Source: Oscarella lobularis
Taxonomy: Eukaryota
Assembly (NCBI RefSeq): GCF_947507565.1
Contig: NC_089179.1
Location: 990,681-1,054,680, forward strand
DNA: 64,000 nucleotides
Direction: 5' to 3'
The notes under the pieces are model-generated. The model was not told the DNA's origin. It did not search any database and was given only the letters and a program-made list of their open reading frames with translations. This document shows positions 31,330-61,520 of the stretch, piece by piece (position 1 is the stretch's first letter; each line of letters starts with the position of its first letter). A program made the position numbers and the translations under genes.

Positions 31330-31503
31330 AAGAAAAGGAACAACGCTTTGTATTGACGCACCTTTTTCTCTTTTCCTGTGTTGTTATTTTGTTCACGTGT
31401 GACGTAAAAATTTACCCCCCCTTCGCTGATTTGTTTCACATTGCACCCCTGCAAGAAACACGCCACAAGTGATGTACACTCCCACGCAAACACGTTTGAT
31501 CAT

Positions 31504-36036: not shown

Positions 36037-39000
36037 GTCGTACGTACTCCGCCGGCAGGCGATGTATATATTCCGGCAAGTGGTGCACGTATACTCAGCC
36101 GGCAGGCGATGTATATATTCCTGCAAGTGGTGTACGTATACTCAGCCGGCAGGCGAAGTACATATTCCGTCAAGTGGTGTACGTACTCCGCCGGCAGGCG
36201 GTGTATATATTCCGGCAAGCGGTGTACGTACTACGCCGGCAGGCGATGTACATATTCCGGCAAGTGGTGTACGTACTCCGCAGGCAGGCGATGTATATAT
36301 TCCGGCAAGCGGTGTACGTACTCCGCCGGCAGGCGATGTATATATTCCGGCAAGTGGTGTACGAACTCCGCCGGAGGCGGTGTGTATATTCCGGCAAGCG
36401 GTGTACGTACTCCGCCTGCAGGCGGTGTATATAATCCGGCAAGTGGTGTACTCCGCCGGCAGGCGGTGTATATATTCCGGCAAGTGGTGTACGTACTCCG
36501 CCGGAGGGCGATGTATATATTCCGGCAAGTGGTGTACGTACTCCGCCGGCAGGCGATGAATATATTCCGGCAAGAGGTGTACGTACTCCACAGGCAGGCG
36601 GTGCATATATTCCGGCAGGCGGTGCATATATTCCAGCAAGTGGTGTACGTTCTCCGCCGGCAGGCGATGTATATATTCCGGCAAGTGGTGTACGTACTCC
36701 GCCGGCAGGCGGTGTATACATTACGGCAGGCGGTGCATATATTCCGGCAAGTGGTGTACGTACTCCGCCGGCAGGCGATGAATATATTCCGGCAAGAGGT
36801 GTACGTACTCCACAGGCAGGCGGTGCATATATTCCGGCAGGCGGTGCATATATTCCAGCAAGTGGTGTACGTTCTCCGCCGGCAGGCGATGTATATATTC
36901 CGGCAAGTGGTGTACGTACTCCGCCGGCAGGCGGTGTATACATTCCGGCAGGCGGTGCATATATTCCGGCAAGTGGTGTACGTACTCCGCCGGCAGGCGA
37001 TGTATATATTCCGGAAAAAGGTGTATATATTCCGGCAAGAGGTGTACGTACTCCGCCGGCAGGCGATGTATATATTCCGACAAGTGGTGTACGTACTCCG
37101 CCGGAAGGCGGTGTATATATTCCGGAGAGTGGTGAACGTACTCCGCCGGCTGGCGGTGTATATATTCCAAAAAGAGGTGTATATATTCCGGCAAGGTGTG
37201 TACGTACTCCGCCGGCAGGCGGTGTATATATTCCGGCAGGTGGTGTACGTGCTCTGCCGGCAGGCGGTGTATATATTCGGGCAAGCGGTGTATATATTCC
37301 GGAAGGCAGTGTACCTACTCCGCCGGGAGGCGGTGTATATATTCCTGCAGGCGTGTACGTACTCTGCCAGCAGGCGGTGTATATATTACAGAAAGCGAGT
37401 ATATATTCCGGAAGGCAGGTTACGTACTACGCCGGCAGGCGGTGTATATATTACGGAGAGCGGTGTACGTACTCCGCCTGCAGGCGGTGTATATATTACG
37501 GCAAGCGGTGTACGTATACTCAGCCGGCAGGCGATGTATATATTCCGGGGAGATGTGTATATATTCCGGCAAGAGGTGTACGTACTCCGCCGGTAGGCGA
37601 TGTATATATTCCGACAAGTGGTGTACGTACTCCGCCGGCTGGCGGTGTATATATTCCAGCAAAGAGGCGTATATATTCCGGCAAGGGGTGTACGCACTCC
37701 GCCGGCAGGCGGTGTATATATTCCGGTGAGTGGTGTACGTACTCCGCCGGCTGGCGGTGTATATATTCCGGCAAGAGGTGTATATAATCCGGCAAAGGGT
37801 GTACGTACTCCGCCGGTAGGCGGAGTATATATTCCGCCAAGTGGTGTACGTATACTCCACCGGAAGGCGGTGTATATATTCCGGCAAGCGGTGTACGTAC
37901 TCCGCGGGCAGGCGGTGTATATATTCCGGAAGGCAGTGTACGTACTCCGCCGGCAGGCGGTGTATATGATCCGGCAAGCGGTGTACGTACTCCGGAGGCA
38001 GGCGGTGTATATATTCCGGAAAACGTGTACGTACTCCGCCGGCAGGCGGTGTATATATTCCGGCAAGCGAGTATATATTCCGGATAGCAGTGTACGTACT
38101 CCGCCGGCAGGCGGTGTGTATATTCGGGCAAGCGGTAAATATATTCCGGAAGGCAGTGTACCTACTCCGCCGGGAGGCGGTGTATATATTCCTGCAGGCG
38201 TGTACGTACTCTGCCAGCAGGCGGTGTATATATTACAGAAAGCGAGTATATATTCCGGAAGGCAGGTTACGTACTACGCCGGCAGGCGGTGTATATATTA
38301 CGGAGAGCGGTGTACGTACTCCGCCTGCAGGCGGTGTATATATTACGGCAAGCGGTGTACGTATACTCAGCCGGCAGGCGATGTATATATTCCGGGGAGA
38401 TGTGTATATATTCCGGCAAGAGGTGTACGTACTCCGCCGGTAGGCGATGTATATATTCCGACAAGTGGTGTACGTACTCCGCCGGCTGGCGGTGTATATA
38501 TTCCGGCAAGAGGTGTATATAATCCGGCAAAGGGTGTACGTACTCCGCCGGTAGGCGGAGTATATATTCCGCCAAGTGGTGTACGTATACTCCACCGGAA
38601 GGCGGTGTATATATTCCGGCAAGCGATGTACGTACTCCGCAGGCAGGCGATGTATATATTCCGGCAAGTGGTGTATGTACTCCGCCGGCAGGCGATGTAT
38701 ATACTCCGGCAAGTGGAGTACGTACTCCGCCGGCAGGCGGTGTATATATTCCGGCAAGCGGTGTACGTACTCCGCAAGCAGGCGATGTATATATTCCGGC
38801 AAGTGGAGTACGTACTCCGCCGGCAGGCGGTGTATATATTCCGGCAAGCGGTGTACGTACTCCGCAAGCAGGCGATGTATATATTCCGGCAAGAGGTGTA
38901 CGTACTCCGCAGGCAGGCGATGTATATATTCGGGCAAGAGGTGTACGTACTCCGCCGGGTGGCGGTGTATATATTCCGGCAGGTGGTGTACGTATACTCA

Positions 39001-42000
39001 GCCGGCAGGCGGTGTATATATTCCGGCAAGCGGTGTACGTACTCCGCAGGCAGGCGATGTATATATTCCGGCAAGAGGTGTATATATTCCGGCAAGTGGT
39101 GTATGTACTCCGCCGGCAGGCGATGTATATACTCCGGCAAGTGGAGTACGTACTCCGCCGGCAGGCGGTGTATATATTCCGGCAAGTGGAGTACGTACTC
39201 CGCAAGCAGGCGATGTATATATTCCGGCAAGAGGTGTACGTACTCCGCAGGCAGGCGATGTATATATTCCGGGAAGTGTTGTACGTACTCCGCCGGCAGG
39301 CGGTGTGTATATTCCGGCAAGAGGTGTACGTACCCCGCCGGCAGGCGATGTATATATTCCGGCAAGTGGTGTATATATTCCGGCAAGAGGTGTAGGCGAT
39401 GTATATATTCCGGCAAAACGTGTACGTACTCCGCCGGCAGGCGGTGTATATATTCCGGCAAGAGGTGTACGTACTCCGCCGGCAGGCGATGTATATATTC
39501 CGGCAAGACGTGTACGTACTCCGCCTGCAGGCGGTGTATATTTTCCGGCAAGTGGCGTACGTACTCCGCCGGCAGGTGATGTATATATTCCGGGCAGGGG
39601 TGTACGTATACTCCGCCGGCAGGCGATGTATATATTCCGGCAAGCGGTGTACGTACTCCGCCGGCAGGCGATGTATATATTCGAGCAAGTGGTCTACGTA
39701 CTCCGACGGCAGGCGGTGGATATATTCCGGCAAGTGGTGTACGTACTCCGCCGGCTGGCGGTGTATATATTCCGGCAAGAGGTGTACGTACTCGGCAGGC
39801 AGGCGATGTATATATTCAGGCAAGAGGTGTATATATTCCGGCAAGAGGTGTACGTACTCCGCCGGCAGGCGATGTATATATTCCGGCAAGACGTGTACGT
39901 ACTTCGCCGGCAGGCGGTGTATATATTCCGGCAAGCGAGTATATATTCCGGAAGGCAGGTTACGTACTACGCCGGCAGGCGGTGTATATATTCCGGCAAG
40001 CGGTGTATATATTACGGAGAGCGGTGTACGTACTCCGCCGGCAGGCGATGTATATATTCCGACAAGTGGTGTACGTACTCCGCCGGAAGGCGGTGTATAT
40101 ATTCCGGAGAGTGGTGTACGTACTCCGCCGGCAGGCGGTGTATATATTCCGGGAAGCGGTGTATATATTACGGCAAGCGGTGTACGTACTCCGCGGGCAG
40201 GCGGTGTATATATTCCGGCAGGCGTGTACATACTCCGCCGGCGAGCGGTGTATATATTCCGGAAGGCAGTGTACGTACTCCGCCGGCAGGCGGTGTATAT
40301 GATCCGGCAAGCGGTGTACGTACTCCGGAGGCAGGCGGTGTATATATTCCGGAAAACGTGTACGTACTCCGCCGGCAGGCGGTGTATATATTCCGGCAAG
40401 CGAGTATATATTCCGGATAGCAGTGTACGTACTCCGCCGGCAGGCGGTGTATATATTCCGGAGGGCCGTGTATATATTCGGGCAAGCGGTGTATATATTC
40501 CGGAGGGCAGTGTACCTACTCCGCCGGGAGGCGGTGTATATATTCCTGCAGGCGTGTACGTACTCTGCCAGCAGGCGGTGTATATATTACAGCAAGCGAG
40601 TATATATTCCGGAAGGCAGGTTACGTACTACGCCGGCAGGCGGTGTATATATTCCGGCAAGCGGTGTATATATTACGGAGAGCGGTGTACGTACTCCGCC
40701 TGCAGGCGGTGTATATATTACGGCAAGCGGTGGGTATATTCCGGCAAGCAGTGTATATATTCCGGAAGGCATTGTACGTACTCCGCCGGCAGGCGGTGTA
40801 TATATTCTGGAGAGCGGTGTACATATTCCGGCAGGCGGTGCACGTACTCCGCCGGCAGGCGATGTATATATTCCGGCAAGTGGTGTACGTATACTCCGCC
40901 GGGTGGCGGTGTATATATTCCGGCAGGTGGTGTACGTATACTCAGCCGGCAGGCGATGTATATACTCCGGCAAGTGGTGTACGTATACTCCGCCGGCAGG
41001 CGATGTATATACTCCGGCAAGTGGTGTACGTATACTCCGCCGGCAGGCGATGTATATATTCCGGCAAGTGGTGTACGTATACTCCGCCAGTAGGCGGTGT
41101 ATATATTCCGGCAAGTGGTGTACGTACTCCGCCGGCAGGCGATGTATATATTCCGGCAAGTGGTGCACGTATACTCAGCCGGCAGGCGATGTATATATTC
41201 CTGCAAGTGGTGTACGTATACTCAGCCGGCAGGCGATGTACATATTCCGTCAAGTGGTGTACGTACTCCGCCGGCAGGCGGTGTATATATTCCGGCAAGC
41301 GGTGTACGTACTACGCCGGCAGGCGATGTACATATTCCGGCAAGTTGTGTACGTACTCCGCAGGCAGGCGATGTATATATTCCGGCAAGTGGTGTACGTA
41401 CTCAGCCGGCAGGCGGTGTATATATTCCGGCAGGCGATGTATATATTCAGGCAAGAGGTGCACGTACTCCGCAGGAAGGCGATGTATATATTCCGGGGAG
41501 ATGTGTATATATTCCGGCAAGAGGTGTACGTACTCCGCCGGTAGGCGATGTATATATTCCGACAAGTGGTGTACGTACTCCGCCGGCTGGCCGTGTATAT
41601 ATTCCAGCAAAGAGGTGTATATATTCCGGCAAGGGGTGTACGCACTCCGCCGGCAGGCGGTGTATATATTCCGGTAAGTGGTGTACGTACTCCGCCGGCT
41701 GGCGGTGTATATATTCCGGCAGGCGGTGTATATATTCCGGCAAGCGGTGTATATATTCCGGCAAGCGGTGTATATATTCCGGCAGGCGGTGTATATATTC
41801 CGGCAGGCGGTGTATATATTCCGGCAGGCGTGTACGTACACCGCCGGCAGGCGGTGTATATATTCCGGCAGGCGTGTACGTACTCCGCCGGCAAGCGGTG
41901 TATATATTCCGGCAGGCGGTGTATATATTCCGGCAGGCGGTGTATATATTCCGGCAGGCGGTGTACGTACTCCGCCGGCAAGCGGTGTATATATACCGGC

Positions 42001-42111
42001 AGGCGTGTACGTACACCGCCGGCAAGCGGTGTATATATTCCGGCAGGCGGTGTATATATTACGGCAGGCGGTGTATATATTCCGGCAAGCGGTGTATATA
42101 TTCCGGCAGGC

Positions 42112-42281
42112 GGCTACAACGACTACAATGACTGCAACGGCTACAATGACTACAACGACTACAACGACTACAACGGCTACAACGGCTACAACGGCTACAA
42201 CGACTACAACGGCTACAACGACTACAACGGCTACAACGACTACAACGGCTACAATGGCTACAACGACTACAATGACTGCAG
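42112..42281. repeat. Short tract of an 18-bp (9+9) minisatellite, GGCTACAAC GACTACAAC, embedded in the satellite.
   Basis: Direct reading. It is flanked on both sides by the 21/24-bp satellite. Confidence 0.9.
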
Positions 42282-42694
42282 GCGGTGTATATATTCCGGC
42301 AGGCGGTGTACGTACTCCGCCGGCAAGCGGTGTATATATTCCGGCAGGCGGTGTACGTACTCCGCCGGCAAGCGGTGTATATATACCGGCAGGCGTGTAC
42401 GTACACCGCCGGCAAGCGGTGTATATATTCCGGCAGGCGGTGTATATATTCCGGCAAGCGGTGTAAATATACCGGCAAGCATGTACTCCGCCGGGGGGCG
42501 GTGTATATATTCCGGCAAGCGGTGTACGTACTCCGCTGGCAGGCGTGTACGTTCTCCGCCGGCAGGCGGTGTATATATTCCGGCAAACAGTGTATATATT
42601 CCGGCAAGCGGTGTATATATTCCGGCAGGCGTGTACGTACTCCGCCGGCAGGCGGTGTATATATTCCGGCAGGCGGTGTATATATTCTGGCAAG

Positions 42695-44883
42695 AAACTA
42701 CAACGGCTACAACTACAACAACTACCACAACGGCTACAATGACTACAACGACTACAACGGCTACAATGACTACAATGACTACAATGACTGCAACGGCTAC
42801 AATGACTACAACGACTACAACGGCTACAATGACTACAATGACTGCAACGGCTACAATGACTACAACGACTACAACGACTACAACGGCTACAACGACTACA
42901 ACGACTACAACGGCTACAACGACTACAACGGCTACAACGGCTACAACGACTACAACGGCTACAACGACTACAACGGCTACAACGACTACAATGACTACAA
43001 TGACTACAATGACTGCAACGACTACAACGGCTACAACGACTACAACGGCTACAACGGCTACAACGACTACAACGGCTACAACGACTACAATGACTACAAT
43101 GACTACAATGACTGCAACGGCTACAATGACTATAACGACTACAACGACTACAACGGCTACAACGACTACAACGGCTACAACGGCTACAACGGCTACAACG
43201 ACTACAACGGCTACAACAACTACAACGGCTACAACGACTACAACGGCTACAACGACTACAACGGCTACAACGACTACAATGACTACAATGACTACAATGA
43301 CTGCAACGGCTACAATGACTACAACGACTACAATGACTACAACGGCTACAACGACTACAACGGCTACAACGACTACAACGGCTACAACGACTACAACGGC
43401 TACAACGACTACAACGGCTACAACGGCTACAACGACTACAACGGCTACAACGACTACAATGACTACAATGACTACAATGACTGACACGGCTACAATGACT
43501 ACAACGACTACAACGACTACAACGGCTACAACGGCTACAACGGCTACAACGGCTACAACGACTACAACGGCTACAACGACTACAACGGCTACAACGACTA
43601 CAACGGCTACAACGACTACAACGGCTACAACGACTACAATGACTACAATGACTACAATGACTGCAACGGCTACAATGACTACAACGACTACAACGACTAC
43701 AACGGCTACAACGACTACAACGGCTACAACGACTACAACGGCTACAACGGCTACAACGACTACAACGGCTACAACGACTACAATGACTACAATGACTACA
43801 ATGACTGCAACGGCTACAATGACTACAACGACTACAATGACTACAACGGCTACAACGACTACAACGGCTACAACGACTACAACGGCTACAACGACTACAA
43901 CGGCTACAACGACTACAACGGCTACAACGGCTACAACGACTACAACGGCTACAACGACTACAATGACTACAATGACTACAATGACTGACACGGCTACAAT
44001 GACTACAACGACTACAACGACTACAACGGCTACAACGGCTACAACGGCTACAACGGCTACAACGACTACAACGGCTACAACGACTACAACGGCTACAACG
44101 ACTACAACGGCTACAACGACTACAACGGCTACAACGACTACAACGACTGCAACGGCTACAACGACTACAATGACTGCAATGACTACAATGACTGCAACGG
44201 CTACAACGACTACAACGACTACAACGGCTACAACGGCTACAACGACTACAACGGCTACAACGACTACAACGGCTACAACGGCTACAACGGCTACAACGAC
44301 TACAACGACTACAACGACTACAATGACTACAATGACTACAATGACTGCAACGGTTACAATGACTACAACGACTACAACGACTACAACGGCTACAACGACT
44401 ACAACGGCTACAACGACTACAACGGCTACAACGACTACAACGGCTACAACGACTACAACGGCTACAACGACTACAATGACTACAATGACTACAACGACTG
44501 CAACGGCTACAACGACTACAACGACTACAACGGCTACAACGACTACAACGGCTACAACGACTACAACGGCTACAACGACTACAACGGCTACAACGACTAC
44601 AACGGCTACAACGGCTACAACGGCTACAACGACTACAATGACTACAATGACTACAATGACTGCAACGGCTACAATGACTACAACGACTACAACGACTACA
44701 ACGGCTACAACGACTACAACGGCTACAACGACTACAACGGCTACAACGACTACAACGGCTACAACGACTACAACGGCTACAACGACTACAACGACTACAA
44801 CGGCTACAATGACTACAATGACTGCAACGGCTACAATGACTACAACGACTACAACGGCTACAACGACTACATCGGCTACAACG
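42695..44883. repeat. A 2.2-kb minisatellite of 9-bp units (GGCTACAAC / GACTACAAC / GACTACAAT / GACTGCAAC) with a supra-periodicity of about 150-190 bp.
   Basis: The marker variant GACTGCAACGGCTACAATGAC recurs at roughly 42840, 43011, 43104, 43296, 43477, 43656, 43803, 43981, 44155, 44343, 44497, 44651 and 44821. Confidence 0.9.
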
Positions 44884-46559
44884 GTGTATATATTCCGGAA
44901 GGCAGTGTACGTACTTTGCCGACAGGCAGTGTATATATTACGGAAGCGGTGTACATACTCCGCGGGCAGGCGGTGTATATATTCCGGCAAGCGGTGTATA
45001 TATTCCGGAAGGCAGTGTACGTACTTTGCCGGCAGGCGGTGTATATATTCCGGCAGGCGGTGTATATATTCCGGCAAGCGGTGTATATATTACGGCAAGC
45101 GGTGTATATATTCCGGCAGGCGGTGTATATATTCCGGCAGGTGTATACATACTCCGCCGGCAGGCGGTGTATATATTCCGGCAAGCGGTGCATATATTCC
45201 GGCAGGCGGTGTACGTACACCGCCGGCAGGCGGTGTATATATACCGGCAGGCGTGTACGTACTCCGCCGGCAAGCGGTGTATATATTCCGGCAGGCGTGT
45301 ACGTACTCCGCCGGCAAGCGGTGTATATATTCCGGCAGGCGTGTACGTACTCCGCCGGCAAGCGGTGTATATATTCCGGCAGGCGGTGTATATATTCCGG
45401 CAGGCGGTGTATATATTCCGGCAGGCGGTGTATATATTCCGGCAGGCGTGTACGTACTCTGCCAGCAGGCGGTGTATATATTCCGGCAGGCGGTGTATAT
45501 ATTCCGGCAGGCGGTGTATATATTCCGGCAGGCGTGTACGTACACCGCCGGTAGGCGGTGTATATATTCCGGCAGGCGTGTACGTACACCGCCGGCAGGC
45601 GGTGTATATATTCCGGCAGGCGGTGTATATATTCCGGCAGGCGTGTACGTACTCCGCCGGCAAGCGGTGTATATATTCCGGCAGGCGGTGTATATATTCC
45701 GGCAGGCGGTGTATATATTCCGGCAGGCGGTGTATATATTCCGGCAGGCGTGTACGTACTCCGCCGGCAAGCGGTGTATATATTCCGGCAGGCGTGTACG
45801 TACTCCGCCGGCAGGCGGTGTATATATTCCGGCAGGCGTGTACGTACTCTGCCAGCAGGCGGTGTATATATTCCGGCAGGCGGTGTATATATTCCGGCAA
45901 GCGGTGTATATATACCGGCAGGCGTGTACGTACTCCGCCGGCAAGCGGTGTATATATTCCGGCAGGCGGTGTATATATTCCGGCAGGCGTGTACGTACTC
46001 CGCCGGCAAGCGGTGTATATATTCCGGCAGGCGGTGTATATATTCCGGCAAGCGGTGTATATATTCCGGCAGGCGTGTACGTACTCCGCCGGCAAGCGGT
46101 GTATATATTCCGGCAGGCGGTGTATATATTCCGGCAGGCGGTGTATATATTCCGGCAAGCGGTGTATATATTCCGGCAGGCGGTGTACGTACACCGCCGG
46201 CAGGCGGTGTAGATATACCGGCAGGCGTGTACGTACTCCGCCGGCAAGCGGTGTATATATTCCGGCAGGCGGATTATATATTCCGGCAGGCGGTGTATAT
46301 ATTCCGGCAAGCGGTGTACGTATCCGCTGGCAGGCGGTGTATATATTCCGGAAGGCAGTGTATATGTGTATATATTCCGGCAGGCGTTGTATATATTCCG
46401 GCAAGCGGTGTATATATTCCGGCAGGCGTGTACGTACTCCGCCGGCAAGCGGTGTATATATTCCGGCAGGCGGTGTATATATTTCGGCAAGCGGTGTATA
46501 TATACCGGCAAGCGTGTACGTACTCCTTATGAATAGTCTTACCTTCGGGTGGACGATCT

Positions 46560-47600
46560 AGGGTGTACCAAAGCTTGAAGTTTGGATTATCTGCTGCTAT
46601 TTTTTTCTAGTTCAGGACGAAGGAGAATGTCGTCTTCGGTCTATGGTATACATTATTGGTCGGAGGGTATTATCTATTCATTTATTTATTTATTTATACC
46701 TGATTGGCAAATATGAGTGACATTTCTGTTCTGTCGTATGGGTCTTTTAGAATTGCTTGTACGATTTGAAGTATTGGGGTGATGCCTTGCGCACGAAAAT
46801 ATTGTCTAATGATAATACATTATTATTAAATACCGGAGCCTCCAGCTATCATTCCAATGTGAGTGCATTGTCGAGATTCTTCCTTTTTGCCTTCCTTGAT
46901 GTGCATTTTGCCTTGGTGAAGAGAACACGTGTCTCTGTCTCTCTCTCTCTCTCTTATTAATTACCTTTGCCCAGATAGGTCAGATGACCTGATGGCCCAC
47001 GCACGTCAATTGCATCCCCAATTTCAAGGGATTCCAAGTGCTGAGTCATTTTACTGCCATCAGGAAAACGCGGATGAACATTGGCAAAATAGACCTAAAA
47101 TAAATAAATAATTAAATACATCACATGACCCATAAGTATCCATAGCTACCTTGATGACTAAATCAAAGTAGCCAATTTCATCGTCAGAGGTCACGGGGGT
47201 ATATGGACGAATGACGAGATCGTCTTTGATACGGGCGCTCAAGTACATGTGTTTCCCTGAGAGAAATGATTTCATGAAGGGGTCCCGGTCCCCCCTCTTC
47301 GAAGACTCACCGATTGGTAAGCCGAGAATCATGTCCGAGCGAAGCGAAAGCGTCGCGTGTCGTGACTCACGATCTACGTGCGAAAAATTTCGACGCGGCT
47401 CTCTAGTCACGTGGTTTTGTCTCGTTTCGCGTTTTCTTTCGGCTACCTCCTTTTCGATTAGCTTCATTGGGATCTTCATTGTTGGATCCAAGCATTTTTC
47501 GTGTTTCGGTGGCGTTGGGGACCCCGCTTTGCCTGTCGTTCCCCAGAACGTTCGGTAGGACGACGGGAACGATTGCCGCCACGACTAGACCAATCTAAAA
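46560..47600 (-). pseudogene. CYB5R: NADH-cytochrome b5 reductase gene (FAD/NAD-binding ferredoxin-reductase fold) missing its C-terminal exon(s). The coding sequence runs into satellite at about 46527.
   Basis: [12 protein letters not shown]..., ...[80 protein letters not shown], ...[71 protein letters not shown]. The expected WDYxxGF...CGPPPM...F tail is absent. Confidence 0.7.
46939..46960. repeat. (CT)11 dinucleotide microsatellite inside a CYB5R intron.
   Basis: ctctctctctctctctctctct read directly. Confidence 0.95.
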
Positions 47601-49137
47601 TGCATTAGAGAGACGACGTAATCGGCGAGCGAAGACGTCCTTTGGCTTACCATTTCGACCTCAGCGCACGTGGTGACGTCAAATAATCCCGGACAACCAC
47701 TATAAAAAAATTGAAAAAATTGGTCACATACAAAATGATGGCATAAAAAACTAAAAAGGAAGTTAATTAAATTCGTATCAAGAAATAAAATAGCCATTCC
47801 GTTTCACGATATCCTTGAGTTGACCTGCAATCTGAATGGCAATACACGCATCAACAACTTTGTTACGTCCTTCTCTTGAATCTCCATTCTCCTCGACATA
47901 TTTTGCGAATGCACTCTTACTCCTTAGATGTCGTAAAAGTGTTCCATAATTGATACGCCACGCCCTTCACCTAGACCGGAATTGCGCCTAAACGAATGAA
48001 CGGATTGAAACCAGCGATTGATAGTATTATTGACCGATGATAGGGCTTTCAAACGAGCTATGGCACGTCTAGATACGTGCCGGCATCGCGGAGGTCGGTT
48101 CTATCATCAGTACGTGCGTTCCATCATGTGTGACGCGTACAGTACCACTTCCGCTTTACCCGCCCCTCACTCCGCGAACGCGGAGCCGCTAGAGCTGATA
48201 TTGCACACGCTAGTTTGTGAATAATGGAGCCGACCACCAGAGTTGTACGGGTGGAGCCCGTATAACGGCGGAGGGAGGCTCTCTCAAACGTGATCTTAGG
48301 GCCGGAAGTGTCTGTCTGTCTGTATGTCTGTTCGTCACGCTCGGTATTGTGACGTAACATAAAAACCCGTTTTTTCGTACAGCGCATGCGCGACATAGGG
48401 CTCGAAACGGTGACCCGAAAAAGGCGATTTACGGCGCGAAAAAAGCGTTTTTTCTATGACAAACAGAAAAAATGCTTAGAAACCCTTATTTCCAATTGAT
48501 CTGTGCTATTTTCCGTGTTATAAATGCCCTGAGAAACCGAAACGACAGTTTTGATTGTCACGCTCTGACGTCACAATCAAAAGTATCCACTCATGCCGTA
48601 TGTGCGTGGGTATGTACGCGTGTACGGGTAACAGGAAATATGACCCGTACACATGCATAGGTCCCCCTCAAATACAGAATACAGAGCACATTATCAAATA
48701 CACTACGTCAGAAAAGCGCCTAATTAGGAAAACATTGCAGTCATGCAAGTATTTACAGTATGTACGTAGGAGTCAGCTGTAGTAGCTAACGGCTGTAAGG
48801 ACCACGTGAATATGTAACAACATAAAAAATTATGACGTCACACTATGGTATGCACTCTCGTACGGTAAGCGGTGGGAGGCTCTGCATGATGGCAACACGG
48901 TGAACACCGGGCCATCATTCTCTAGTGTAGGTATGTATTCGTGAAAAAGCCGCTTCGCAATCTCTCTTCGTTTGGCCGGGACAGGTGTTCTATAGTACAT
49001 GTCGTTACGGGACTCTATCCAGGTCTACGCCCACTGCCACCAGTTGACGTCTGGCTACGACCAAAGCCGCATATACGCTCTGGCTACGACAATAGAAAGC
49101 GTCTAGCACATTCGGTCGTCGTCGTTTCTTCTTTCTA

Positions 49138-51125
49138 ATGGGTCGAAATCTCTCTATCGTCTTCCTCATCGTCGTTTTCGTTCGATTTGCGCACGGTAGG
49201 CGACGTCACTCGAGCGTTCTTCGTCGCCGTGAGCTCCCCTTTGTTTTGTTTCTTGTCGTAGCCTGCCCATCGATCGATTTCGAGTGCGACAACGGGCTCT
49301 GCATTCCGAAAGAGTGGCAGTGCGACGGCGATTGGGATTGTCGCGACGGCGAGGACGAATTCGGCTGTCCCGGTTAGCGAGAGAACGCGTTTTTCCTCCC
49401 CTGCGCTGCACACAGCGCTGTAGTGTCGTAGTTTTTCCGCTCGGGGGCCCCCCTTTCTCGCTCCCACGCCTACATGTGTACCTTTCTTCTTTTGCTTCCG
49501 GGGAATCCCCCAGCGAGCCGGAATTGTAGCGCGGGCGAATTTCGGTGCGCGAACGGTCACTGCATACGTCCGACGTGGAAGTGCGATCAGGACAACGATT
49601 GCGGCGACGGCAGCGACGAATCGAATTGTCGTAAGTTTTAGAGATTTCATATCTCCGGCTTTTTTGTTTCGGAAACGTAAAGTAAAAAAAGCGGGCCACC
49701 AGAGTAACTTTATTATCTCTGATGGCACGTGCGTTTTTCGTTATACAGTATCCTTTTTTTGAAGAGTCACTCTCGTATGATAACCTATAGCTCATTGACG
49801 ATGCACTGAATCTCCTGCATAAATATTTTGCCCTTATATAGGTCGATCGTGCAATGCCTAAAATACAAGACTTAGAGCACGCAGTAATGTATTATTTTTT
49901 TCTTGTAGCGCTTAAAAATTGCACGTCTTCCGAGTTCAAGTGCGACCAGGGTAAGTGCATTCGAGCGAGCTGGCAGTGCGACGGCCATAACGACTGCAGC
50001 GATTCGTCGGACGAGAGAAATTGCAGTAAGTTACGATGCCATACGGCAAAAAGGAAAGAGTCGTTTCTTCGTCTCCTAGCGGGCGTCACCTGTTCGGCGG
50101 TCGAATTCCAATGCGTCGGAACGTCCGAGTGCATCGCGCAAAGTTGGAAATGCGATGGCGAATCCGATTGCGGTAATGGAGCGGACGAAAAAGATTGCCG
50201 TAAGTATTAGAGGGAGGGTAATCGCAGAGAGGAGGTCGTTTTCTCACAGCTCCCACAACGAATTGCTCCGCGAATCAGTTTCTCTGCGCATCAAAGCGCT
50301 GCATTCCGGCAAGCTACGTGTGCGATCGCGACAACGACTGCGGCGATTGGTCAGACGAATCGTCGTGCCGTAAGAATAGAGTAGTACCAATGGTACCCCC
50401 ATCTCACGCGTCGATTAGGTGCGCCCGGCAATTGCGCCGCAGACGAGTTGAAATGCCGCAGCGGCTTGTGCATTCCGTCCTTGTGGCGTTGCGACAGCGA
50501 TTACGACTGCGAATTGAATTCCGACGAAGAGAACTGCAGTACGTGGGGAATTAGTAGAAATCTCCTCTCCCCCTCTCCCCCCTCCCCAAAAAAAATTTTT
50601 ATGGGACTTGTCAAACTTATAGACAAAGGCTATTCACTGAAAACTCTAATTTATAGCCTAAGGAAAATGTTTGGTTTGATTGATCGGGATGATTACAATG
50701 CGGTGCTTCGCTTGGAAAGAGTCTAGGACTCTTAGCTAGCCTAATTAGTGCAATCTTCTAGGAACTTCACTTAGAAGGAGGAGACTTAATTTTCCGTATA
50801 GAAAACTCTAAAATGGGGAGACTCCCAATATTTGCCGGTTTTTAATTCGCCTTTTTTTAAAAAATTAGCCTGTCTTCCTGGCGAGTTTCACTGCGCCAAT
50901 TATCGTTGCATTCCGATGAGCAAAAGATGCGACGGGACGGACGATTGCGGCGACGGCTCGGACGAAAGCAATTGTCGTAAGCGACTTATTAGAGACCCCT
51001 AACGAGATGATGAAGAGAAACAGGCGCTTTTTTTAGCTACGCCTACTCCGACAGTTCCGCCCTGCCCTCAGAACGAGTTCACGTGTGGCGATGGGCAGTG
51101 CATAGCGCAAAAGTCGGTGTGCGAT
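49138..51125 (+). pseudogene. Gene with a signal peptide followed by eight LDL-receptor class A (LDLa) cysteine-rich modules, one module per phase-1 exon. The eighth module is cut mid-domain by the satellite array.
   Basis: Signal peptide [20 protein letters not shown]. Modules: [35 protein letters not shown]; [35 protein letters not shown]; CTSSEFKCDQGKCIRASWQCDGHNDCSDSSDERNC; CSAVEFQCVGTSECIAQSWKCDGESDCGNGADEKDC; [35 protein letters not shown]; [35 protein letters not shown]; [35 protein letters not shown]; CPQNEFTCGDGQCIAQKSVCD|satellite. Every exon ends ...C|GTAAG and starts after a ...AG acceptor in phase 1. Confidence 0.8.
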
Positions 51126-54100
51126 ATTCCGGCAAGAGGTGTACGTACTCCGCCGGTAGGCGATGTATATATTCCGACAAGTGGTGTACGTACTCCGCCG
51201 GCTGGCGGTGTATATATTCCAGCAAAGAGGTGTATATATTCCGGCAAGGGGTGTACGCACTCCGCCGGCAGGCGGTGTATATATTCCGGTAAGTGGTGTA
51301 CGTACTCCGCCGGCTGGCGGTGTATATATTCCAGCAAAGAGGTGTATATATTCCGGCAAGGGGTGTACGCACTCCGCCGGCAGGCGGTGTATATATTCCG
51401 GTAAGTGGTGTACGTACTCCGCCTGAGGCGGTGTATATATTCCGGCAAGTGGTGTACTCCGCCGGCAGGCGGTGTATATATTCCGGCAGGCGGTGTATAT
51501 ATTCCGGCAAGAGGTGTACGTACTCAGCCGGCAGGCGGTGTATATATTCCGGCAAGTGGTGTACGTACTCCGCCGGAGGGCGATGTATATATTCCGGCAA
51601 GTGGTGTACGTACTCCGCCGGCAGGCGATGAATATATTCCGGCAAGAGGTGTACGTACTCCACAGGCAGGCGGTGCATATATTCCGGCAGGCGGTGCATA
51701 TATTCCAGCAAGTGGTGTACGTTCTCCGCCGGCAGGCGATGTATATATTCCGGCAAGTGGTGTACATACTCCGCCCGCTGTATACATTCCGGCAGGCGGT
51801 GCATATATTCCGGCAAGTGGTGTACGTACTCCGCCGGCAGGCGATGTATATATTCCGGAAAAAGGTGTATATATTCCGGCAAGAGGTGTACGTACTCCGC
51901 CGGCAGGCGATGTATATATTCCGACAAGTGGTGTACGTACTCCGCCGGCTGGCGGTGTATATATTCCAGCAAAGAGGCGTATATATTCCGGCAAGGTGTG
52001 TACGTACTCCGCCGGCAGGCGGTGTATATATTCCGGCAGGTGGTGTACGTGCTCCGCCGGCAGGCGGTGTATATATTACGGCAAGCGGTGGGTATATTCC
52101 GGCAAGCAGTGTATATATTCCGGAAGGCATTGTACGTACTCCGCCGGCAGGCGGTGTATATATTCCGGAGAGCGGTGTACATATTCCGGCAGGCGGTGCA
52201 CGTACTCCGCCGGCAGGCGATGTATATATTCCGGCAAGACGTGTACGTACTCCGCCGGCAGGCGGTGTATATATTCCGGCAAGAGGTGTACGTACTTCGC
52301 CGGCAGGCGGTGTATATATTCCGGCAAGAGGTGTACGTTCTCCGCCGGAAGGCGGTGAATATATTCCGGCAAGTGATGAACGTACTCCGCCGGCAGGCGA
52401 TGTATATATTCCGGCAAGTGGTGTACTTACTCCGCCGGCAGGCGATGTATATATTCCGGCAAGTGGTGTACGTATACTCCGCCGGGTGGCGGTGTATATA
52501 TTCCGGCAAGTGGTGTACGTATACTCAGCCGGCAGGCGATGTATATATTCCGGCAAGTGGTGTACGCACTCCGCCGGGAGGCGGTGTATACATTCCGGTA
52601 AGTGGTGTACGTACTCCGCCGGCTGGCGGTGTATATATTCCAGCAAAGAGGTGTATATATTCCGGCAAGGGGTGTACGCATTCCGCCGGCAGGCGGTGTA
52701 TATATTCCGGTAAGTGGTGTACATAATCCGGCAAGGGGTGTACGTACTCCGCCGGTAGGCGGAGTATATATTCGGCCAAGTGGTGTACGTATACTCCACC
52801 GGCAGGCGGTGTATATATTCCGGCAAGCGGTGTACGTACTCCGCAGGCAGGCGATGTATATATTCCGGCAAGAGGTGTATATATTCCGGCAAGTGGTGTA
52901 TGTACTCCGCCGGCAGGCGATGTATATACTCCGGCAAGTGGAGTACGTACTCCGCAGGCAGGCGATGTATATATTCCGGCAAGAGGTGTATATATTCCGG
53001 CAAGTGGTGTATGTACTCCGCCGGCTGGCGGTGTATATATTCCAGCAAAGAGGTGTATATATTCCGGCAAGGGGTGTACGCACTCCGCCGGCAGGCGGTG
53101 TATATATTCCGGTAAGTGGTGTACATAATCCGGCAAGGGGTGTACGTACTCCGCCGGTAGGCGGAGTATATATTCGGCCAAGTGGTGTACGTATACTCCA
53201 CCGGCAGGCGGTGTATATATTCCGGCAAGAGGTGTATATATTCCGGCAAGTGGTGTATGTACTCCGCCGGCAGGCGATGTATATACTCCGGCAAGTGGAG
53301 TACGTACTCCGCAGGCAGGCGATGTATATATTCCGGCAAGAGGTGTATATATTCCGGCAAGTGGTGTATGTACTCCGCCGGCTGGCGGTGTATATATTCC
53401 AGCAAAGAGGTGTATATATTCCGGCAAGGGGTGTACGCACTCCGCCGGCAGGCGGTGTATATATTCCGGTAAGTGGTGTACATAATCCGGCAAGGGGTGT
53501 ACGTACTCCGCCGGTAGGCGGAGTATATATTCGGCCAAGTGGTGTACGTATACTCCACCGGCAGGCGGTGTATATATTCCGGCAAGCGGTGTACGTACTC
53601 CGCAGGCAGGCGATGTATATATTCCGGCAAGAGGTGTATATATTCCGGCAAGTGGTGTATGTACTCCGCCGGCAGGCGATGTATATACTCCGGCAAGTGG
53701 AGTACGTACTCCGCCGGCAGGCGGTGTATATATTCCGGCAAGCGGTGTACGTACTCCGCAAGCAGGCGATGTATATATTCCGGCAAGAGGTGTACGTACT
53801 CCGCCGGCAAGCGGTGTATATATTCCGGGAAGCGGTGTACGTACTCCGCCGGCAGGCGGTGTATATATTCCGGCAGGCGCTGTATATATTCCGGTGAGTT
53901 GTGTAGGTACTCCGCCGGCAGGCGATGTATATATTTCGGAAAGTGGTGTACGTACTGCGCAGGCAGGCGATGTATGTATTCCGGGAAGTGTTGTACGTAC
54001 TCCGCCGGCAGGCGGTGTGTATATTCCGGCAAGAGGTGTACGTACCCCGCCGGCAGGCGATGTATATATTCCGGCAAGTGGTGTATATATTCCGGCAAGA

Positions 54101-57100
54101 GGTGTACGTACTCCGCAGGCAGGCGATGTATATATTCCGGCAAGAGGTGTATATATTCCGGCAAGTGGTGTATGTACTCCGCCGGCAGGCGATGTATATA
54201 CTCCGGCAAGTGGAGTACGTACTCCGCCGGCAGGCGGTGTATATATTCCGGCAAGCGGTGTACGTACTCCGCAAGCAGGCGATGTATATATTCCGGCAAG
54301 AGGTGTACGTACTCCGCCGGAAGGCGGTGTATATATTCCGGCAAGCGGTGTACGTACTCCGCAAGCAGGCGATGTATATATTCGGGCAAGAGGTGTACGT
54401 ACTCCGCCGGCAGGCGATGTATATATTCCGACAAGTGGTGTACGTACTCCGCCGGCAGGCGGTGTATATATTCCGGCAGGCGCTGTATATATTCCGGCGA
54501 GTGGTGTAGGTACTCCGCCGGCAGGCGATGTATATATTCCGGCAAGAGGTGTACGTACTCCGCCGGAAGGCGGTGTATATATTCCGGCAAGCGGTGTACG
54601 TACTCCGCAAGCAGGCGATGTATATATTCGGGCAAGAGGTGTACGTACTCCGCCGGCAGGCGATGTATATATTCCGGCAAGTGGTGTACGTACTTCGCCG
54701 GCAGGCGGTGTGTATATTCCGGCAAGAGGTGTACGTACTCCGCCGGAAGGCGGTGTATATATTCCGGCAAGCGGTGTACGTACTCCGCAAGCAGGCGATG
54801 TATATATTCGGGCAAGAGGTGTACGTACTCCGCCGGCAGGCGATGTATATATTCCGACAAGTGGTGTACGTACTCCGCCGGCAGGCGGTGTATATATTCC
54901 GGCAGGCGCTGTATATATTCCGGCGAGTGGTGTAGGTACTCCGCCGGCAGGCGATGTATATATTCCGGCAAGTGGTGTACGTACTTCGCCGGCAGGCGGT
55001 GTGTATATTCCGGCAAGAGGTGTACGTACTCCGCCGGTAGGCGATGTATATATTCCGGCAAGACGTGTACGTACTCCGCCGGCAGGCGGTGTATATATTC
55101 CGGCAAGAGGTGTACGTTCTCCGCCGGAAGGCGGTGAATATATTCCGGCAAGCGGTGTACGTACTCCGCAGGCAGGCGATGTATATATTCCGGCAAGAGG
55201 TGTACGTACTCCGCCGGCAGGCGGTGTATATATTCCGGGAAGCGGTGTACGTACTCCGCCGGCAGGCGGTGTATATATTCCGGCAGGCGCTGTATATATT
55301 CCGGTGAGTTGTGTAGGTACTCCGCCGGCAGGCGATGTATATATTCCGACAAGTCGTGTACGTACTCCGCCGGAAGGCGGTGTATATATTCCGGAGAGTG
55401 GTGTACGTACTCCGCCGGCTGGCGGTGTATATATTCCGGCAAGAGGTGTATATATTCCGGCAAGATGTGTACGTACTCCGCCTGCAGGCGGTGTATATAT
55501 TCCGGCAGGTGGTGTACGTGCTCCGCCGGCAGGCGGTGTATATATTCCGGCAAGCGGTGTACGTACTCCGCCGGCAGGCGGTGTATATATTCCGGCAGGC
55601 GATCTATATATTCCGGCAAGTGATGAACGTACTCCGCCGGCATGCGGTGTCTATATTCGGGCAAGTGGTGTACGTACTCCGCCGGCAGGCGGTGTATATA
55701 TTCCGGCAAGTGGTGCACGTATACTCAGCCGGCAGGCGATGTATATATTCCTGCAAGTGGTGTACGTATACTCAGCCGGCAGGCGAAGTACATATTCCGT
55801 CAAGTGGTGTACGTACTCCGCCGGCAGGCGATGTACATATTCCGGCAAGTGGTGTACGTACTCCGCAGGCAGGCGATGTATATATTCCGGCCAGCGGTGT
55901 ACGTACTCCGCCGGCAGGCGATGTATATATTCCGGCAAGTGGTGTACGTACTTCGCCGGCAGGCGGTGTGTATATTCCGGCAAGAGGTGTACGTACTCCG
56001 CCGGAAGGCGGTGTATATATTCCGGCAAGCGGTGTACGTACTCCGCAAGCAGGCGATGTATATATTCGGGCAAGAGGTGTACGTACTCCGCCGGCAGGCG
56101 ATGTATATATTCCGACAAGTGGTGTACGTACTCCGCCGGCAGGCGGTGTATATATTCCGGCAGGCGCTGTATATATTCCGGCGAGTGGTGTAGGTACTCC
56201 GCCGGCAGGCGATGTATATATTCCGGCAAGTGGTGTACGTACTTCGCCGGCAGGCGGTGTGTATATTCCGGCAAGAGGTGTACGTACTCCGCCGGTAGGC
56301 GATGTATATATTCCGGCAAGACGTGTACGTACTCCGCCGGCAGGCGGTGTATATATTCCGGCAAGAGGTGTACGTTCTCCGCCGGAAGGCGGTGAATATA
56401 TTCCGGCAAGCGGTGTACGTACTCCGCAGGCAGGCGATGTATATATTCCGGCAAGAGGTGTACGTACTCCGCCGGCAGGCGGTGTATATATTCCGGGAAG
56501 CGGTGTACGTACTCCGCCGGCAGGCGGTGTATATATTCCGGCAGGCGCTGTATATATTCCGGTGAGTTGTGTAGGTACTCCGCCGGCAGGCGATGTATAT
56601 ATTCCGACAAGTCGTGTACGTACTCCGCCGGAAGGCGGTGTATATATTCCGGAGAGTGGTGTACGTACTCCGCCGGCTGGCGGTGTATATATTCCGGCAA
56701 GAGGTGTATATATTCCGGCAAGATGTGTACGTACTCCGCCTGCAGGCGGTGTATATATTCCGGCAGGTGGTGTACGTGCTCCGCCGGCAGGCGGTGTATA
56801 TATTCCGGCAAGCGGTGTACGTACTCCGCCGGCAGGCGGTGTATATATTCCGGCAGGCGATCTATATATTCCGGCAAGTGATGAACGTACTCCGCCGGCA
56901 TGCGGTGTCTATATTCGGGCAAGTGGTGTACGTACTCCGCCGGCAGGCGGTGTATATATTCCGGCAAGTGGTGCACGTATACTCAGCCGGCAGGCGATGT
57001 ATATATTCCTGCAAGTGGTGTACGTATACTCAGCCGGCAGGCGAAGTACATATTCCGTCAAGTGGTGTACGTACTCCGCCGGCAGGCGATGTACATATTC

Positions 57101-60100
57101 CGGCAAGTGGTGTACGTACTCCGCAGGCAGGCGATGTATATATTCCGGCCAGCGGTGTACGTACTCCGCCGGCAGGCGATGTATATATTCCGGCAAGTGG
57201 TGTACGAACTCCGCCGGAGGCGGTGTGTATATTCCGGCAAGCGGTGTACGTACTCCGCCTGCAGGCGGTGTATATATTCCGGCAAGTGGTGTACTCCGCC
57301 GGCAGGCGGTGTATATATTCCAGCAAAGAGGCGTAAATATTCCGGCAAGCGGTGTACGTACTCCGCCTGCAGGCGGTGTATATATTCCGGTAAGTGGTGT
57401 ACGTACTCCGCCGGCTGGCGGTGTATATATTCCAGCAAAGAGGCGTATATATTCCGGCAAGGGGTGTACGCACTCCGCCGGCAGGCGGTGTATATATTCC
57501 GGCAAGAGGTGTATATAATCCGGCAAGGGGTGTACGTACTCCGCCGGTAGGCGGAGTATATATTCCGCCAAGTGGTGTACGTATACTCCACCGGAAGGCG
57601 GTGTATATATTCAGGCAAGCGGTGTACGTACTCCGCAGGCAGGCGATGTATATATTCCGGCAAGAGGTGTATATATTCCGGCAAGTGGTGTATGTACTCC
57701 GCCGGCAGGCGATGTATATACTCCGGCAAGTGGAGTACGTACTCCGCCGGCAGGCGGTGTATATATTCCGGCAAGCGGTGTACGTACTCCGCAAGCAGGC
57801 GATGTATATATTCCGGCAAGTGGAGTACGTACTCCGCCGGCAGGCGGTGTATATATTCCGGCAAGCGGTGTACGTACTCCGCAAGCAGGCGATGTATATA
57901 TTCCGGCAAGAGGTGTACGTACTCCGCAGGCAGGCGATGTATATATTCCGGGAAGCGGTGTACGTACTCCGCCGGCAGGCGATGTATATATTCGGGCAAG
58001 AGGTGTATATATTCCGGCAAGTGGTGTACGTACTCCGCCGGCAGGCGATGAATATATTCCGGCAAGAGGTGTACGTACTCCACAGGCAGGCGGTGCATAT
58101 ATTCCGGCAGGCGGTGCATATATTCCAGCAAGTGGTGTACGTTCTCCGCCGGCAGGCGATGTATATATTCCGGCAAGTGGTGTACGTACTCCGCCGGCAG
58201 GCGATGTATATATTCCGGAAAAAGGTGTATATATTCCGGCAAGAGGTGTACGTACTCCGCCGGAAGGCGGTGTATATATTCCGGAGAGTGGTGAACGTAC
58301 TCCGCCGGCTGGCGGTGTATATATTCCGGAAAGAGGTGTATATATTCCGGCAAGGTGTGTACGTACTCCGCCGGCAGGCGGTGTATATATTCCGGCAGGT
58401 GGTGTACGTGCTCCGCCGGCAGGCGGTGTATATATTCTGGGAAGCGGTGTACGTACTCCGCCGGCAGGCGGTGTATATATTCCGGCAGGCGATCTATATA
58501 TTCCGGCAAGTGATGTACGTACTCCGCCGGCATGCGATGTATATATTCCGGCAAGTGGAGTATGTACTCCGCCGGCAAGCGGTGTATATATTTCGGCAAG
58601 CGGTGTATATATTCCGGAAGGAAGTCTACTTACTCCGCCGGCAGGCGGTGTATATATTCCTGCAGACGTGTACGTACTCCGCCGGCAGGCGGTGTATATA
58701 TTCCGGCAAGCGGTGTATATATTACGGCAAGCGGTGTACGTACTCCGCGGGCAGGCGGTGTATATATTCCGGCAGGCGTGTACATACTCCGCCGGCGAGC
58801 GGTGTATATATTCCGGAAGGCAGTGTACGTACTCCGCCGGCAGGCGGTGTATATGATCCGGCAAGCGGTGTACGTACTCCGCAGGCAGGCGATGTATATA
58901 TTCGGGCAAGCGGTGTACGTACTCCGCCGGCAGGCGGTGTATATATTCCGGCAGGCGCTGTATATATTCCGGTGAGTTGTGTAGGTACTCCGCCGGCAGG
59001 CGATGTATATATTTCGGCAAGTGGTGTACGTACTCCGCCGGCAGGCGGTGTATATATTCCGGAAGGCGGTGTATATATTCCGGAGAGCGGTGTACGTACT
59101 CCGCCGGCAGGCGAAGAATATAATCCGGCAAGAGGTGTACGTACTCCGCAGGCAGGCGGTGTATATATTCCGGCAGGCGGTGTATATTTTCCGGCAAGTG
59201 GCGTACGTACTCCGCCGGCAGGTGATGTATATATTCCGGGCAGGGGTGTACGTATACTCCGCCGGCAGGCGATGTATATATTCCGGCAAGCGGTGTACGT
59301 ATACTCCGCCGGCAGGCGATGTATATATTCGGGCAAGTGGTCTACGTACTCCGACGGCAGGCGGTGGATATATTCCGGCAAGTGGTGTACGTACTCCGCC
59401 GGCAGGCGGTGTATATATTACGGCAAGCCGTGTACGTACTCCGGAGGCAGGCGCTGTATATATTACGGCAAGCGGTGTACGTACCCCGCCGGCAGGCAGT
59501 GTATATATTACGGAAGCGGTGTACATAGTCCGCGGGCAGGCGGTGTTTATATTCCGGCAGGCGTATACGTACTCCGCCGGGAGGCGGTGTATATATTCCG
59601 GAAAGCGGTGTATATATTCCGGAAGGCAGTGTACGTACTCCGCCGGAAGGCGGTGTATATATACCGGCAGGCGTGTACGTACTCCGCCGGCAGGCGGTGT
59701 ATATACTCCGGAGAGCGGTGTATATATTCCGGAGGGCAGTGTACGTACTCCGCCGGCAGGCGGTGTATATATTACGGCAAGCGGTGTACGTACTCCGCCG
59801 GCAGGCGGTGGATATATTACGGCAAGTGGTGTACATACTCCGGAGGCAGGCGGTGTATATAATACGGCAGGCGGTGTATATATTCCGGAAGGCAGTGTAC
59901 GTACTCCGCCGGCAGGCGGTGTATATATTCCGGCAAGCGGTGTATATATTCCTGCAGGCGTGTACGTACTCCGCCGGCAGGCGGTGTATAGATACCGGCA
60001 GGCGCGTACGTACTCCGCCGGCACGATTACAACGGCTACAACGGCTACAACGACAACAACGGCTACAACGGCTACAACGGCCACAACGACTACAACGGCT

Positions 60101-61239: not shown

Positions 61240-61244
61240 TTCCT

Positions 61245-61520
61245 CGACGTCATGCATCGGCACTCGTGATTGCCTCAAAGCAAGAATATTCGCTCGGGAA
61301 ACGCGCCCTTTAACGCTAATAGATATATCATGCAGGTGAACGAATCGGGGCCGCGATCGACGTGGTCGCCGAGGAAGAGAAACGTCGAGTTGTTTCGCGG
61401 CTCGGCTTTGAGACCGCGGAGAATGCGATCGGGAAGACGGCGCGTTTGGGACGGCGTTTTCGGCGTGTCGTGCAGGAGACCGCCGCCGGCGGCGGTACGA
61501 AACAATTTAATCAGATCTAA
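61245..61520 (-). pseudogene. N-terminal catalytic exon of a PPP-family Ser/Thr phosphatase (GDxHG, GDxVDRG, GNHE motifs) with an in-frame TGA in place of the Arg of LLRGNHE. It abuts the satellite at its 3' side.
   Basis: The minus-strand translation is [23 protein letters not shown]-(about 25-aa insert)[44 protein letters not shown], followed directly by satellite. The 61776-62201 minus ORF upstream may be its N-terminal region. Confidence 0.6.

Follow-up and report, generated by a model that had tools for sequence, protein, structure and literature searches.

A probable recent segmental duplication with its intronic satellite inside a pseudogene of the sponge Oscarella lobularis

Several processes are known to relocate gene fragments within genomes. 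Capture by a Helitron has its own hallmarks, namely 5'-TC...CTRR-3' ends, a 3' hairpin, and insertion at A/T without a target-site duplication (TSD), and a flanking direct repeat of 10 bp has the length typical of Mutator-like elements. Satellites also move: in euchromatin, they reach new loci via microhomology-mediated repair and extrachromosomal circular DNA (eccDNA), as described for Rsp-like and 1.688 in Drosophila (PMC7403614), and the Cast satellite DNAs of Tribolium, located in gene-rich regions, show the same kind of spread (PMC11610590). We compare here with these systems a 4.6-kb island of unique sequence that occupies positions 46527-51125 of a 64,000-nucleotide stretch of genomic DNA from the sponge Oscarella lobularis (hereafter, the window), between two arrays of one satellite. 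The best protein matches of the window are themselves from O. lobularis, and we found no paper naming both Oscarella and satellite DNA.

The island holds parts of two genes, arranged head-to-head: exons 1-8 of a NADH-cytochrome b5 reductase 3-like (CYB5R) pseudogene on the minus strand (46543-47653) and, on the plus strand (49138-51125), a nine-exon 5' piece of an LRP4-like receptor gene. It is a copy: the same genes are syntenic at its source, the left junction is common to both loci, the right breakpoint is new, and the block that contains it interrupts a calcineurin-like exon, in both haplotypes. We consider it very probable that the island is the core of a very recent, non-processed, and non-functional segmental duplication of about 25 kb, in which an intronic satellite was copied along with the genes and which now lies inside a third pseudogene. 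A previous sequence-only reading of this DNA had described a unique island with two genes truncated within the satellite, their 3' ends pointing outward into the arrays, and this description is accurate; the explanation that it attached to the truncations has to be revised, as detailed below.

Two gene fragments and their source locus

Our comparison relies on five contigs (L001-L005) of one HiFi assembly (ENA ERZ18545485), which were reached through a stop-free genomic stretch over LDLa exons 4-5, recorded as the 118-aa open reading frame (ORF) call P0331 (100% identity). Two of them, the 3.8-Mb primary contig L003 and the alternate haplotig L002, are identical (100%) to positions 46000-51600 of the window. 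The other three (L001, L004, and L005) represent a different locus, called the source locus in what follows, which is collinear with 46527-51125 apart from insertions and deletions, at 99.3-99.6% identity and with a substitution divergence of 0.39-0.70%. The reductase pseudogene and the LRP4-like gene are head-to-head neighbours there as well, and the complete order is last exon of the reductase, satellite array in the last intron, exons 8 to 1, shared promoter region, and complete LRP4-like gene. Since the two genes are adjacent at the source, one copied segment accounts for both truncations; the two independent losses proposed by the sequence-only reading are thus replaced by a single duplication.

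The left junction of the island (...GTACGTACTCC/TTATGAATAG) is base-identical in all five contigs. At the source, the satellite is located in the last intron of the reductase pseudogene, in the same orientation as the left array of the window and on the strand opposite to the gene, and the last exon (DWKYSSGFVSEEMIREHLPP...CGPPPMIKYAC...) is found across the array, 2.85 kb away in L001 and 6.4 kb away in L005, where it is preceded by a ccccag acceptor and 63 bp of intron and bears further frameshifts. The identical junction and the presence of the last exon past the array mean that the intronic satellite predates the window copy, and the apparent cut of the reductase copy by the satellite is explained by an array that the intron already contained. 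On the right side, the source LDLa exon reads on (...GTGTGCGAT/CTCCGAAGGGATTGCGCGGACGGAAGCGACGAG, encoding CDLRRDCADGSDEEPARIC), and the window turns to satellite at the same point; in these alignments, the LDLa junction (51125/51126) is the only new breakpoint.

The view that the arrays were not simply intronic is therefore right for the LDLa junction and wrong for the left array, which is intronic at the source. Searching elsewhere for the last CYB5R exon and the rest of the LDLa gene, as had been advised, was fruitful, both being present on the source-type contigs. The refuting observation that had been named, missing exons correctly spliced from beyond the arrays, comes close to the situation of the sister locus (L001/L005), where the last CYB5R exon lies past the array; the window itself contains no such exon.

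In the window, the match of the reductase to human CYB5R3 (tblastn, completed by frame analysis) runs through the exons from 47653 to 46543 and extends to ...WYTLDRPPE. The last exon present ends in a canonical donor (GAAG/GTAAGA), followed by a 16-bp remnant of the 5' end of the last intron (GTAAGACTATTCATAA, 46527-46542, minus strand, from sequence reading) that abuts the satellite directly; the gene was indeed said to stop beside the satellite, at a distance of about 30 bp that has to be corrected to these 16 bp of intron. The reported loss of the C-terminal NAD-binding part is real: the FAD-binding domain is full (PF00970, FAD_binding_6, positions 2-99 of 99, E = 6.6e-30), with its RxYTxxS motif present as RPYTPVTS, and the NAD-binding domain (PF00175, NAD_binding_1) is limited to positions 1-68 of 109. 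Neither CGPPPM nor the last CYB5R exon was detected in any frame of the window by tblastn, motif regular expressions, or blastn with the last exon of the source locus, and the exon was also not found in the 10 kb past the right end of the window.

The reading frame of this copy is disrupted as well. An intact paralog of 301 aa (P0001), 97% identical to the window copy and with a full C-terminus, is encoded on another contig; compared with P0001 and with the conserved CYB5R sequence, frame analysis of the minus strand gives three frameshifts, located in exon 2 (VVIYIIYRTFWG region), in exon 3 near 47330 (RFRFALPRSDMILG), and in an A7 run at 46600-46606. Given these three frameshifts, we read the window copy as a pseudogene, despite the existence of an NCBI protein model (P0002, "cytochrome b5 reductase 1-like", 251 aa, on a 3.6-Mb contig) that reproduces its frameshifted reading and ends in ...ELEKNSSR. 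At the third frameshift, the window and L004 have an A7 run, L001 and L005 have one more base, and an intact gene would need A6; judging from these alignments, this is a homopolymer length polymorphism among the reductase pseudogene copies. Another difference among these copies is a 558-bp miniature inverted-repeat transposable element (MITE) inserted in the reductase pseudogene at 7683-8240 of L004, with terminal inverted repeats (TIRs) of about 90 bp and a 9-bp TSD (CTCTCTAGT); L004 is the only source copy that carries it, and a Mutator-like family may thus have been active in this genome not long ago.

The LRP4-like fragment (exon model and Pfam) starts with an ATG at 49138 and shows canonical GT/AG sites in its nine exons, every intron being in phase 1. 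It encodes a signal peptide, seven complete LDLa modules, and the first half of an eighth (PF00057, Ldl_recept_a, eight stretches, E = 3.8e-92), module 8 being cut within exon 9, after ...SVCD, at 51125/51126; the sequence-only reading had rightly placed the cut in the eighth module. The EGF modules, YWTD propellers, and transmembrane anchor are absent from the window copy and present at the source (L005/L001), where Pfam delineates a complete gene with 8 LDLa modules, EGF_CA, four YWTD propellers separated by EGF modules, a Ser/Thr-rich stalk, and a transmembrane helix. Up to the breakpoint, the ORF is intact; only 3-4 nt and 2 aa distinguish its coding sequence from that of the source copies, which is too little for any statement on selection. 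Judged by its reading frame, the fragment could at most give a secreted protein with seven LDLa modules followed by a tail of 92 residues encoded by the satellite.

The region between the two divergent genes (47654-49137) is collinear with L001, L004, and L005, except for a 701-bp insertion at 48226-48926, in the shared promoter region, which is present in the window copy only. We saw neither a clear TIR nor a TSD around this insertion, and no second copy of it in the window or in the source-type loci retrieved. Introns and intergenic promoter region are all kept in the island copy, and its genes do not have the features of processed pseudogenes (retrocopies).

The satellite itself forms a left array at 36040-46526 and a right array at 51126-61240 (Tandem Repeats Finder, TRF), with the same 21-bp and 24-bp units (GGTGTATATATTCCGGCAGGC and GGTGTACGTACTCCGCCGGCAGGC, respectively) in the same orientation. 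Patches of a 9-bp repeat (CTACAACGA) are located by TRF at 42114-42277, 42697-44883, and 60028-60107. Compared by blastn, the left, right, and source arrays align along many diagonals at 80-87% identity, and the unique 48-mers shared by the left and right arrays are likewise spread over many diagonals. Across copies and haplotypes, array lengths range from 2.9 to 11 kb. Units of 20, 22, 23, and 26 bp produce 93 register shifts in about 18 kb, that is, one per 80-265 bp and, in the left array, one per 80-173 bp; the six reading frames are all stop-free over hundreds of codons because of the base composition; and the LRP4-like frame that enters the right array meets a TAA at 51402-51404, after 92 satellite-encoded codons. 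Taken together, register shifts, compositional open frames, and the early TAA lead us to regard the satellite as non-coding. Its main repeat periods (9, 21, 24, 45, 66, and 90 bp) are multiples of three, one of its registers reads GGVYIPA/SGVRTPPA, and the 9-bp repeat reads as poly-Thr. A coding minisatellite may have given rise to the satellite, or else the AT-rich intron sequence (...AATTATATATCCCC) that adjoins the array at the source locus may have done so.

Insertion site and proposed mechanism

The satellite-island-satellite block measures 25.2 kb and splits one exon of a calcineurin-like (PPP3C-like) pseudogene on the minus strand, the two halves of which end at 61241 and 36039. According to tblastn and frame analysis, the 5' part of this pseudogene, corresponding to the N-terminal half of a divergent phosphatase, lies at 61241-62032, with the same sequence in the alternate haplotig, and the rest of the cut exon (..SKIFGRSVLYERFMACFDCLPIAC..CLHGGIS) is found with the next exon at 35746-36039. 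The motifs GDVHG, GDHVDRG, and LL*GNHEC are present (PF00149, E = 2.9e-26), and the joined flanks give a contiguous alignment with calcineurin P0149 (43% identity), in which the junction corresponds to a gap of 6 aa. No single open frame covers GDxHG, GDxVDRG, and GNHE: a TGA at 61275-61277 replaces the Arg codon of LRGNHE, in the alternate haplotig likewise, 25.2 kb separate the two parts of the exon, and a fragment of a WD40 gene stands in place of the C-terminal half. The NCBI model P0148 ("protein phosphatase 3 catalytic subunit alpha-like", 190 aa) ends at this same TGA. No close paralog of the pseudogene was found among proteins, the next best match being 44% identical.

A 10-bp direct repeat, identified by sequence reading, flanks the block, with a left copy TCCTCGTCGT at 36032-36041 and a right copy TCCTCGACGT at 61241-61250. 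The two copies match at 9/10 positions, are in the same codon register, and are alike in both haplotypes; we take them as a candidate TSD that would result from the repair of a staggered break.

With these elements in hand, the events can be put together. The copied segment extends from inside the intronic array, via the reductase pseudogene and the shared promoter region, to LRP4-like exon 9. Its end inside the intronic array leaves the reductase copy without its last exon, and at the other end, in exon 9 (LDLa module 8), the copy switches to the same satellite in the same orientation; the break at 51125 shows a 2-bp microhomology (AT), and the exon sequence that precedes it resembles a satellite unit over an imperfect 15 nt (AAGtCGGTGTgcgAT vs AAG-CGGTGTataAT). 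The resulting array-island-array block was inserted in the exon of the calcineurin-like pseudogene, which had already decayed.

The origin of the second array, on the right side of the island, is something that we infer rather than see directly. The right array has the polarity and order of the source arrays, a long stretch of the 45-bp type being followed by a 9-bp patch and then by 1.1-1.6 kb of the 21/44-bp type, and the two extremities of the block (...AAGCGGTGT[T] and [GT]ACGTACTCCGCC...), put end to end, make up a single canonical unit to within 1-3 nt. Both this layout and this closure are compatible with an intermediate, circular or tandem, whose opening point lay in the array. We tentatively suggest, as a possibility rather less likely than not, that such an intermediate (array plus island) formed by template switch or recombination between exon 9 and the upstream array, was opened in the array, and was inserted at a staggered break.

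A bolder version, which we find rather unlikely, would make the intronic satellite the vehicle of the move: an eccDNA circle or a rolling-circle concatemer comprising the array, the reductase pseudogene, and the 5' part of the LRP4-like gene would have arisen by a microhomology-guided switch from LRP4-like exon 9 back to the upstream array and been reintegrated at a staggered break, with a 10-bp duplication. If this were true, satellites would move unique genic DNA to new chromosomal sites in a compact sponge genome, and the DNA moved would include an intact promoter and an ORF (signal peptide plus seven LDLa modules) from which a secreted decoy might be made.

One has to weigh against the duplication scenario a number of observations. 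As regards the donor, the source copies share two deletions, of 10 bp and 4 bp, that are absent from the window copy, which implies that none of L001, L004, and L005 was the direct template in its present state; together with the 701-bp insertion, these deletions also show that the window locus is no allele of the source copies but has a lineage of its own. Divergence among the three source-type contigs amounts to 0.31-0.59%, similar to their distance from the island, which singles out neither a donor nor a number of source copies. Named ptg000262l, atg000120l, and atg000179l in the assembly, these contigs are 66-119 kb long. As regards the insertion site, we found neither an empty-site allele nor a parent for the calcineurin-like pseudogene, one look-up having returned only the alternate haplotig and a second one nothing. 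Both 10-mers could also belong to an original internal near-repeat, with a loss of about 6 bp: if both are original, the canonical GNHE-LPIA spacing of calcineurin is obtained, and if one is a TSD, the protein is 6 aa short. Finally, the probability of the block ends closing by chance is about 0.1, and the many diagonals formed by the shared 48-mers mean that the register of the arrays cannot verify a circular permutation or a concatemer.

Around the block, the F-box/WD40 gene has its own 3' end at 63233-63727, and a 493-bp direct duplicate of its last exons lies at 35253-35745 on the minus strand (97.8% identity over 497 aligned columns), fused within an exon (at 35745, ...LLWE) to the truncated calcineurin-like pseudogene. 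An F-box-like ORF is located upstream in contig L006, and the WD40 Pfam matches are weak. This gene and a pair of glycosyltransferase family 92 (GT92) genes, all apparently normal, are situated 1-3 kb from the block. The GT92 genes are in tandem (31503-32372 and 32892-33768) and 96.6% identical; both are called as 325 aa in the alternate haplotig, and the second as 271 aa in the primary contig. An element of about 120 bp occurs, at 80% identity, in the right flank of the window (62950-63066) and in the far source flank (L001, 2534-2649). Further away, about 11 tandem copies of a 33-bp unit (13492-13873, matching at up to 94%) lie within a long plus-strand open frame (12863-14053) and are probably a coding minisatellite of an unrelated gene. 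No RNA gene of the window reached the Rfam gathering score, and ARAGORN found no tRNA in it.

Other explanations

Among the alternatives, the one that fares best, improbable as we judge it, is that a transposable element, Pack-MULE-like or of another cut-or-copy type, carried the satellite and the gene fragments into the calcineurin-like pseudogene. The 10-bp flanking repeat is of the kind expected from such an element, with its 9/10 match, and the genome harbours an evidently recent MITE with a 9-bp TSD and TIRs of about 90 bp, present only in L004. Against this, the block ends in plain satellite in direct orientation (GTACGTACTCC... and ...GGCAAGCGGTGTT), without visible TIRs, unique ends of the long-terminal-repeat type, poly-A, or Helitron termini, and no transposase or reverse transcriptase ORF is found in the island. 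A Pack-MULE, recognized by TIRs and a TSD of 9-11 bp, would thus have its TSD-like 10-mer and lack its TIRs, and a Helitron is at odds with both the ends of the block and flanks bearing a 10-bp repeat.

It would be very improbable that a pre-existing array in pericentromeric heterochromatin independently captured two unrelated gene fragments into a mosaic island, as the sequence-only reading favoured. The wider region does have a mosaic aspect, with fragments of CYB5R, LRP4-like, calcineurin-like (split), and F-box/WD40 (3' piece) genes, and TRF finds arrays on both sides of the island; the island itself, however, is one collinear segment, the two genes being adjacent at the source, and the copy took in the left array with its junction. 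The block is, moreover, bounded by the two halves of one exon, apparently normal genes are found 1-3 kb away, and the position of the block, around 2.73 Mb within a 3.8-Mb contig, is uninformative as to a centromere. Pericentromeric heterochromatin is marked by very long arrays in gene-poor DNA at the centromere; the arrays here measure 10 kb each. Nor can L001, L004, and L005 be secondary copies of the island, because the genes are complete there.

That both genes of the window are intact and spliced across ordinary intronic satellites to distant exons seems to us extremely improbable. The canonical GTAAGA donor at the end of the CYB5R exon and the truly intronic position of the array at the source would agree with it, but the LDLa break falls within an exon that continues differently at the source, the last CYB5R exon is missing from the window and from the next 10 kb on its right, what lies beyond the left array is a calcineurin-like exon, and the reductase has three frameshifts; the island was correctly described as made of non-functional gene fragments, and we predict the block as a whole to have no function of its own.

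Assemblies classically go wrong in satellite arrays, and one could imagine that the junctions are assembly joins in a contig that became chimeric through the repeat. This is scarcely credible here. All four junctions are base-identical in the HiFi primary contig and in the alternate haplotig, and the arrays differ in length between the two, the left one measuring 10.5 kb in the former and about 11.2 kb in the latter, and the right one 10.1 kb and 8.46 kb, respectively. The alternate haplotig also has an extra insertion of about 937 bp (L007, ~7996-8934) at window position 34936, some 1.1 kb before the block begins on the left, and the contig contains no N gaps. Four identical junctions in spite of unequal arrays are not what assembly joins would give; as far as assemblies can show, the junctions are real, as the sequence-only reading had assumed.

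Finally, the satellite as a giant repetitive coding exon (GGVYIPA/SGVRTPPA, poly-Thr) into which the LDLa gene continues as an in-frame fusion is a candidate that we rejected as next to impossible: its main units (21, 24, 9, and 45 bp) are multiples of three and it is in the GGVYIPA register that the LDLa frame runs into the array, but it has to face the 93 register shifts, the six compositional open frames, the stop of the LDLa frame after 92 codons, a source array that is intronic and on the strand opposite to the gene, and Pfam matches that are only spurious and of low complexity.

The locus among known systems

For annotation, the consequence is that the NCBI models P0002 and P0148 represent truncated pseudogene fragments and that the LRP4-like fragment is a partial duplicate of a gene that is complete elsewhere. 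The locus is also an unusually well-resolved case of very young age (<1% divergence), with source and derived loci both preserved, of an intronic satellite co-duplicated with its flanking genes and landing in another gene, and with it the mobility of satellites, be it circle-mediated or replicative, can be put to the test in an animal of an early-branching lineage. Nothing in it requires a new kind of element: known processes and ordinary genome turnover are at work, in a very clean instance, and its main value resides in the correction of annotation and in a well-kept pair of source and copy for the study of satellite mobility in sponges.

Proteins of the LRP4/MEGF7 type, in the LDL-receptor family, carry eight LDLa modules followed by four YWTD propellers. 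The source gene is like them, the likeness being one of architecture, and the window copy differs in ending in module 8. With Pack-MULE and Helitron capture, the locus shares the relocation of gene fragments to a new site; it departs from them by the lack of TIRs and Helitron termini and by consisting of one collinear segment plus satellite instead of a patchwork.

The resemblance to the spread of satellites in Drosophila and Tribolium is closer, with at least two gene-rich loci, variation in array length, short microhomology at a junction, and ends that close into one unit, as an opened circle would leave. The difference is that 4.6 kb of unique genic DNA moved too. Duplicated non-processed pseudogenes provide the other close parallel: introns and promoter are kept, identity is 99.3-99.6%, the genes are truncated at the breakpoints and bear disabling frameshifts, and neighbours were copied together. 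Unlike these pseudogenes, the island adjoins one and the same satellite at both breakpoints, the first of which fell in an intronic array, and it sits between two 10-kb arrays, in a block that is itself inside a third pseudogene.

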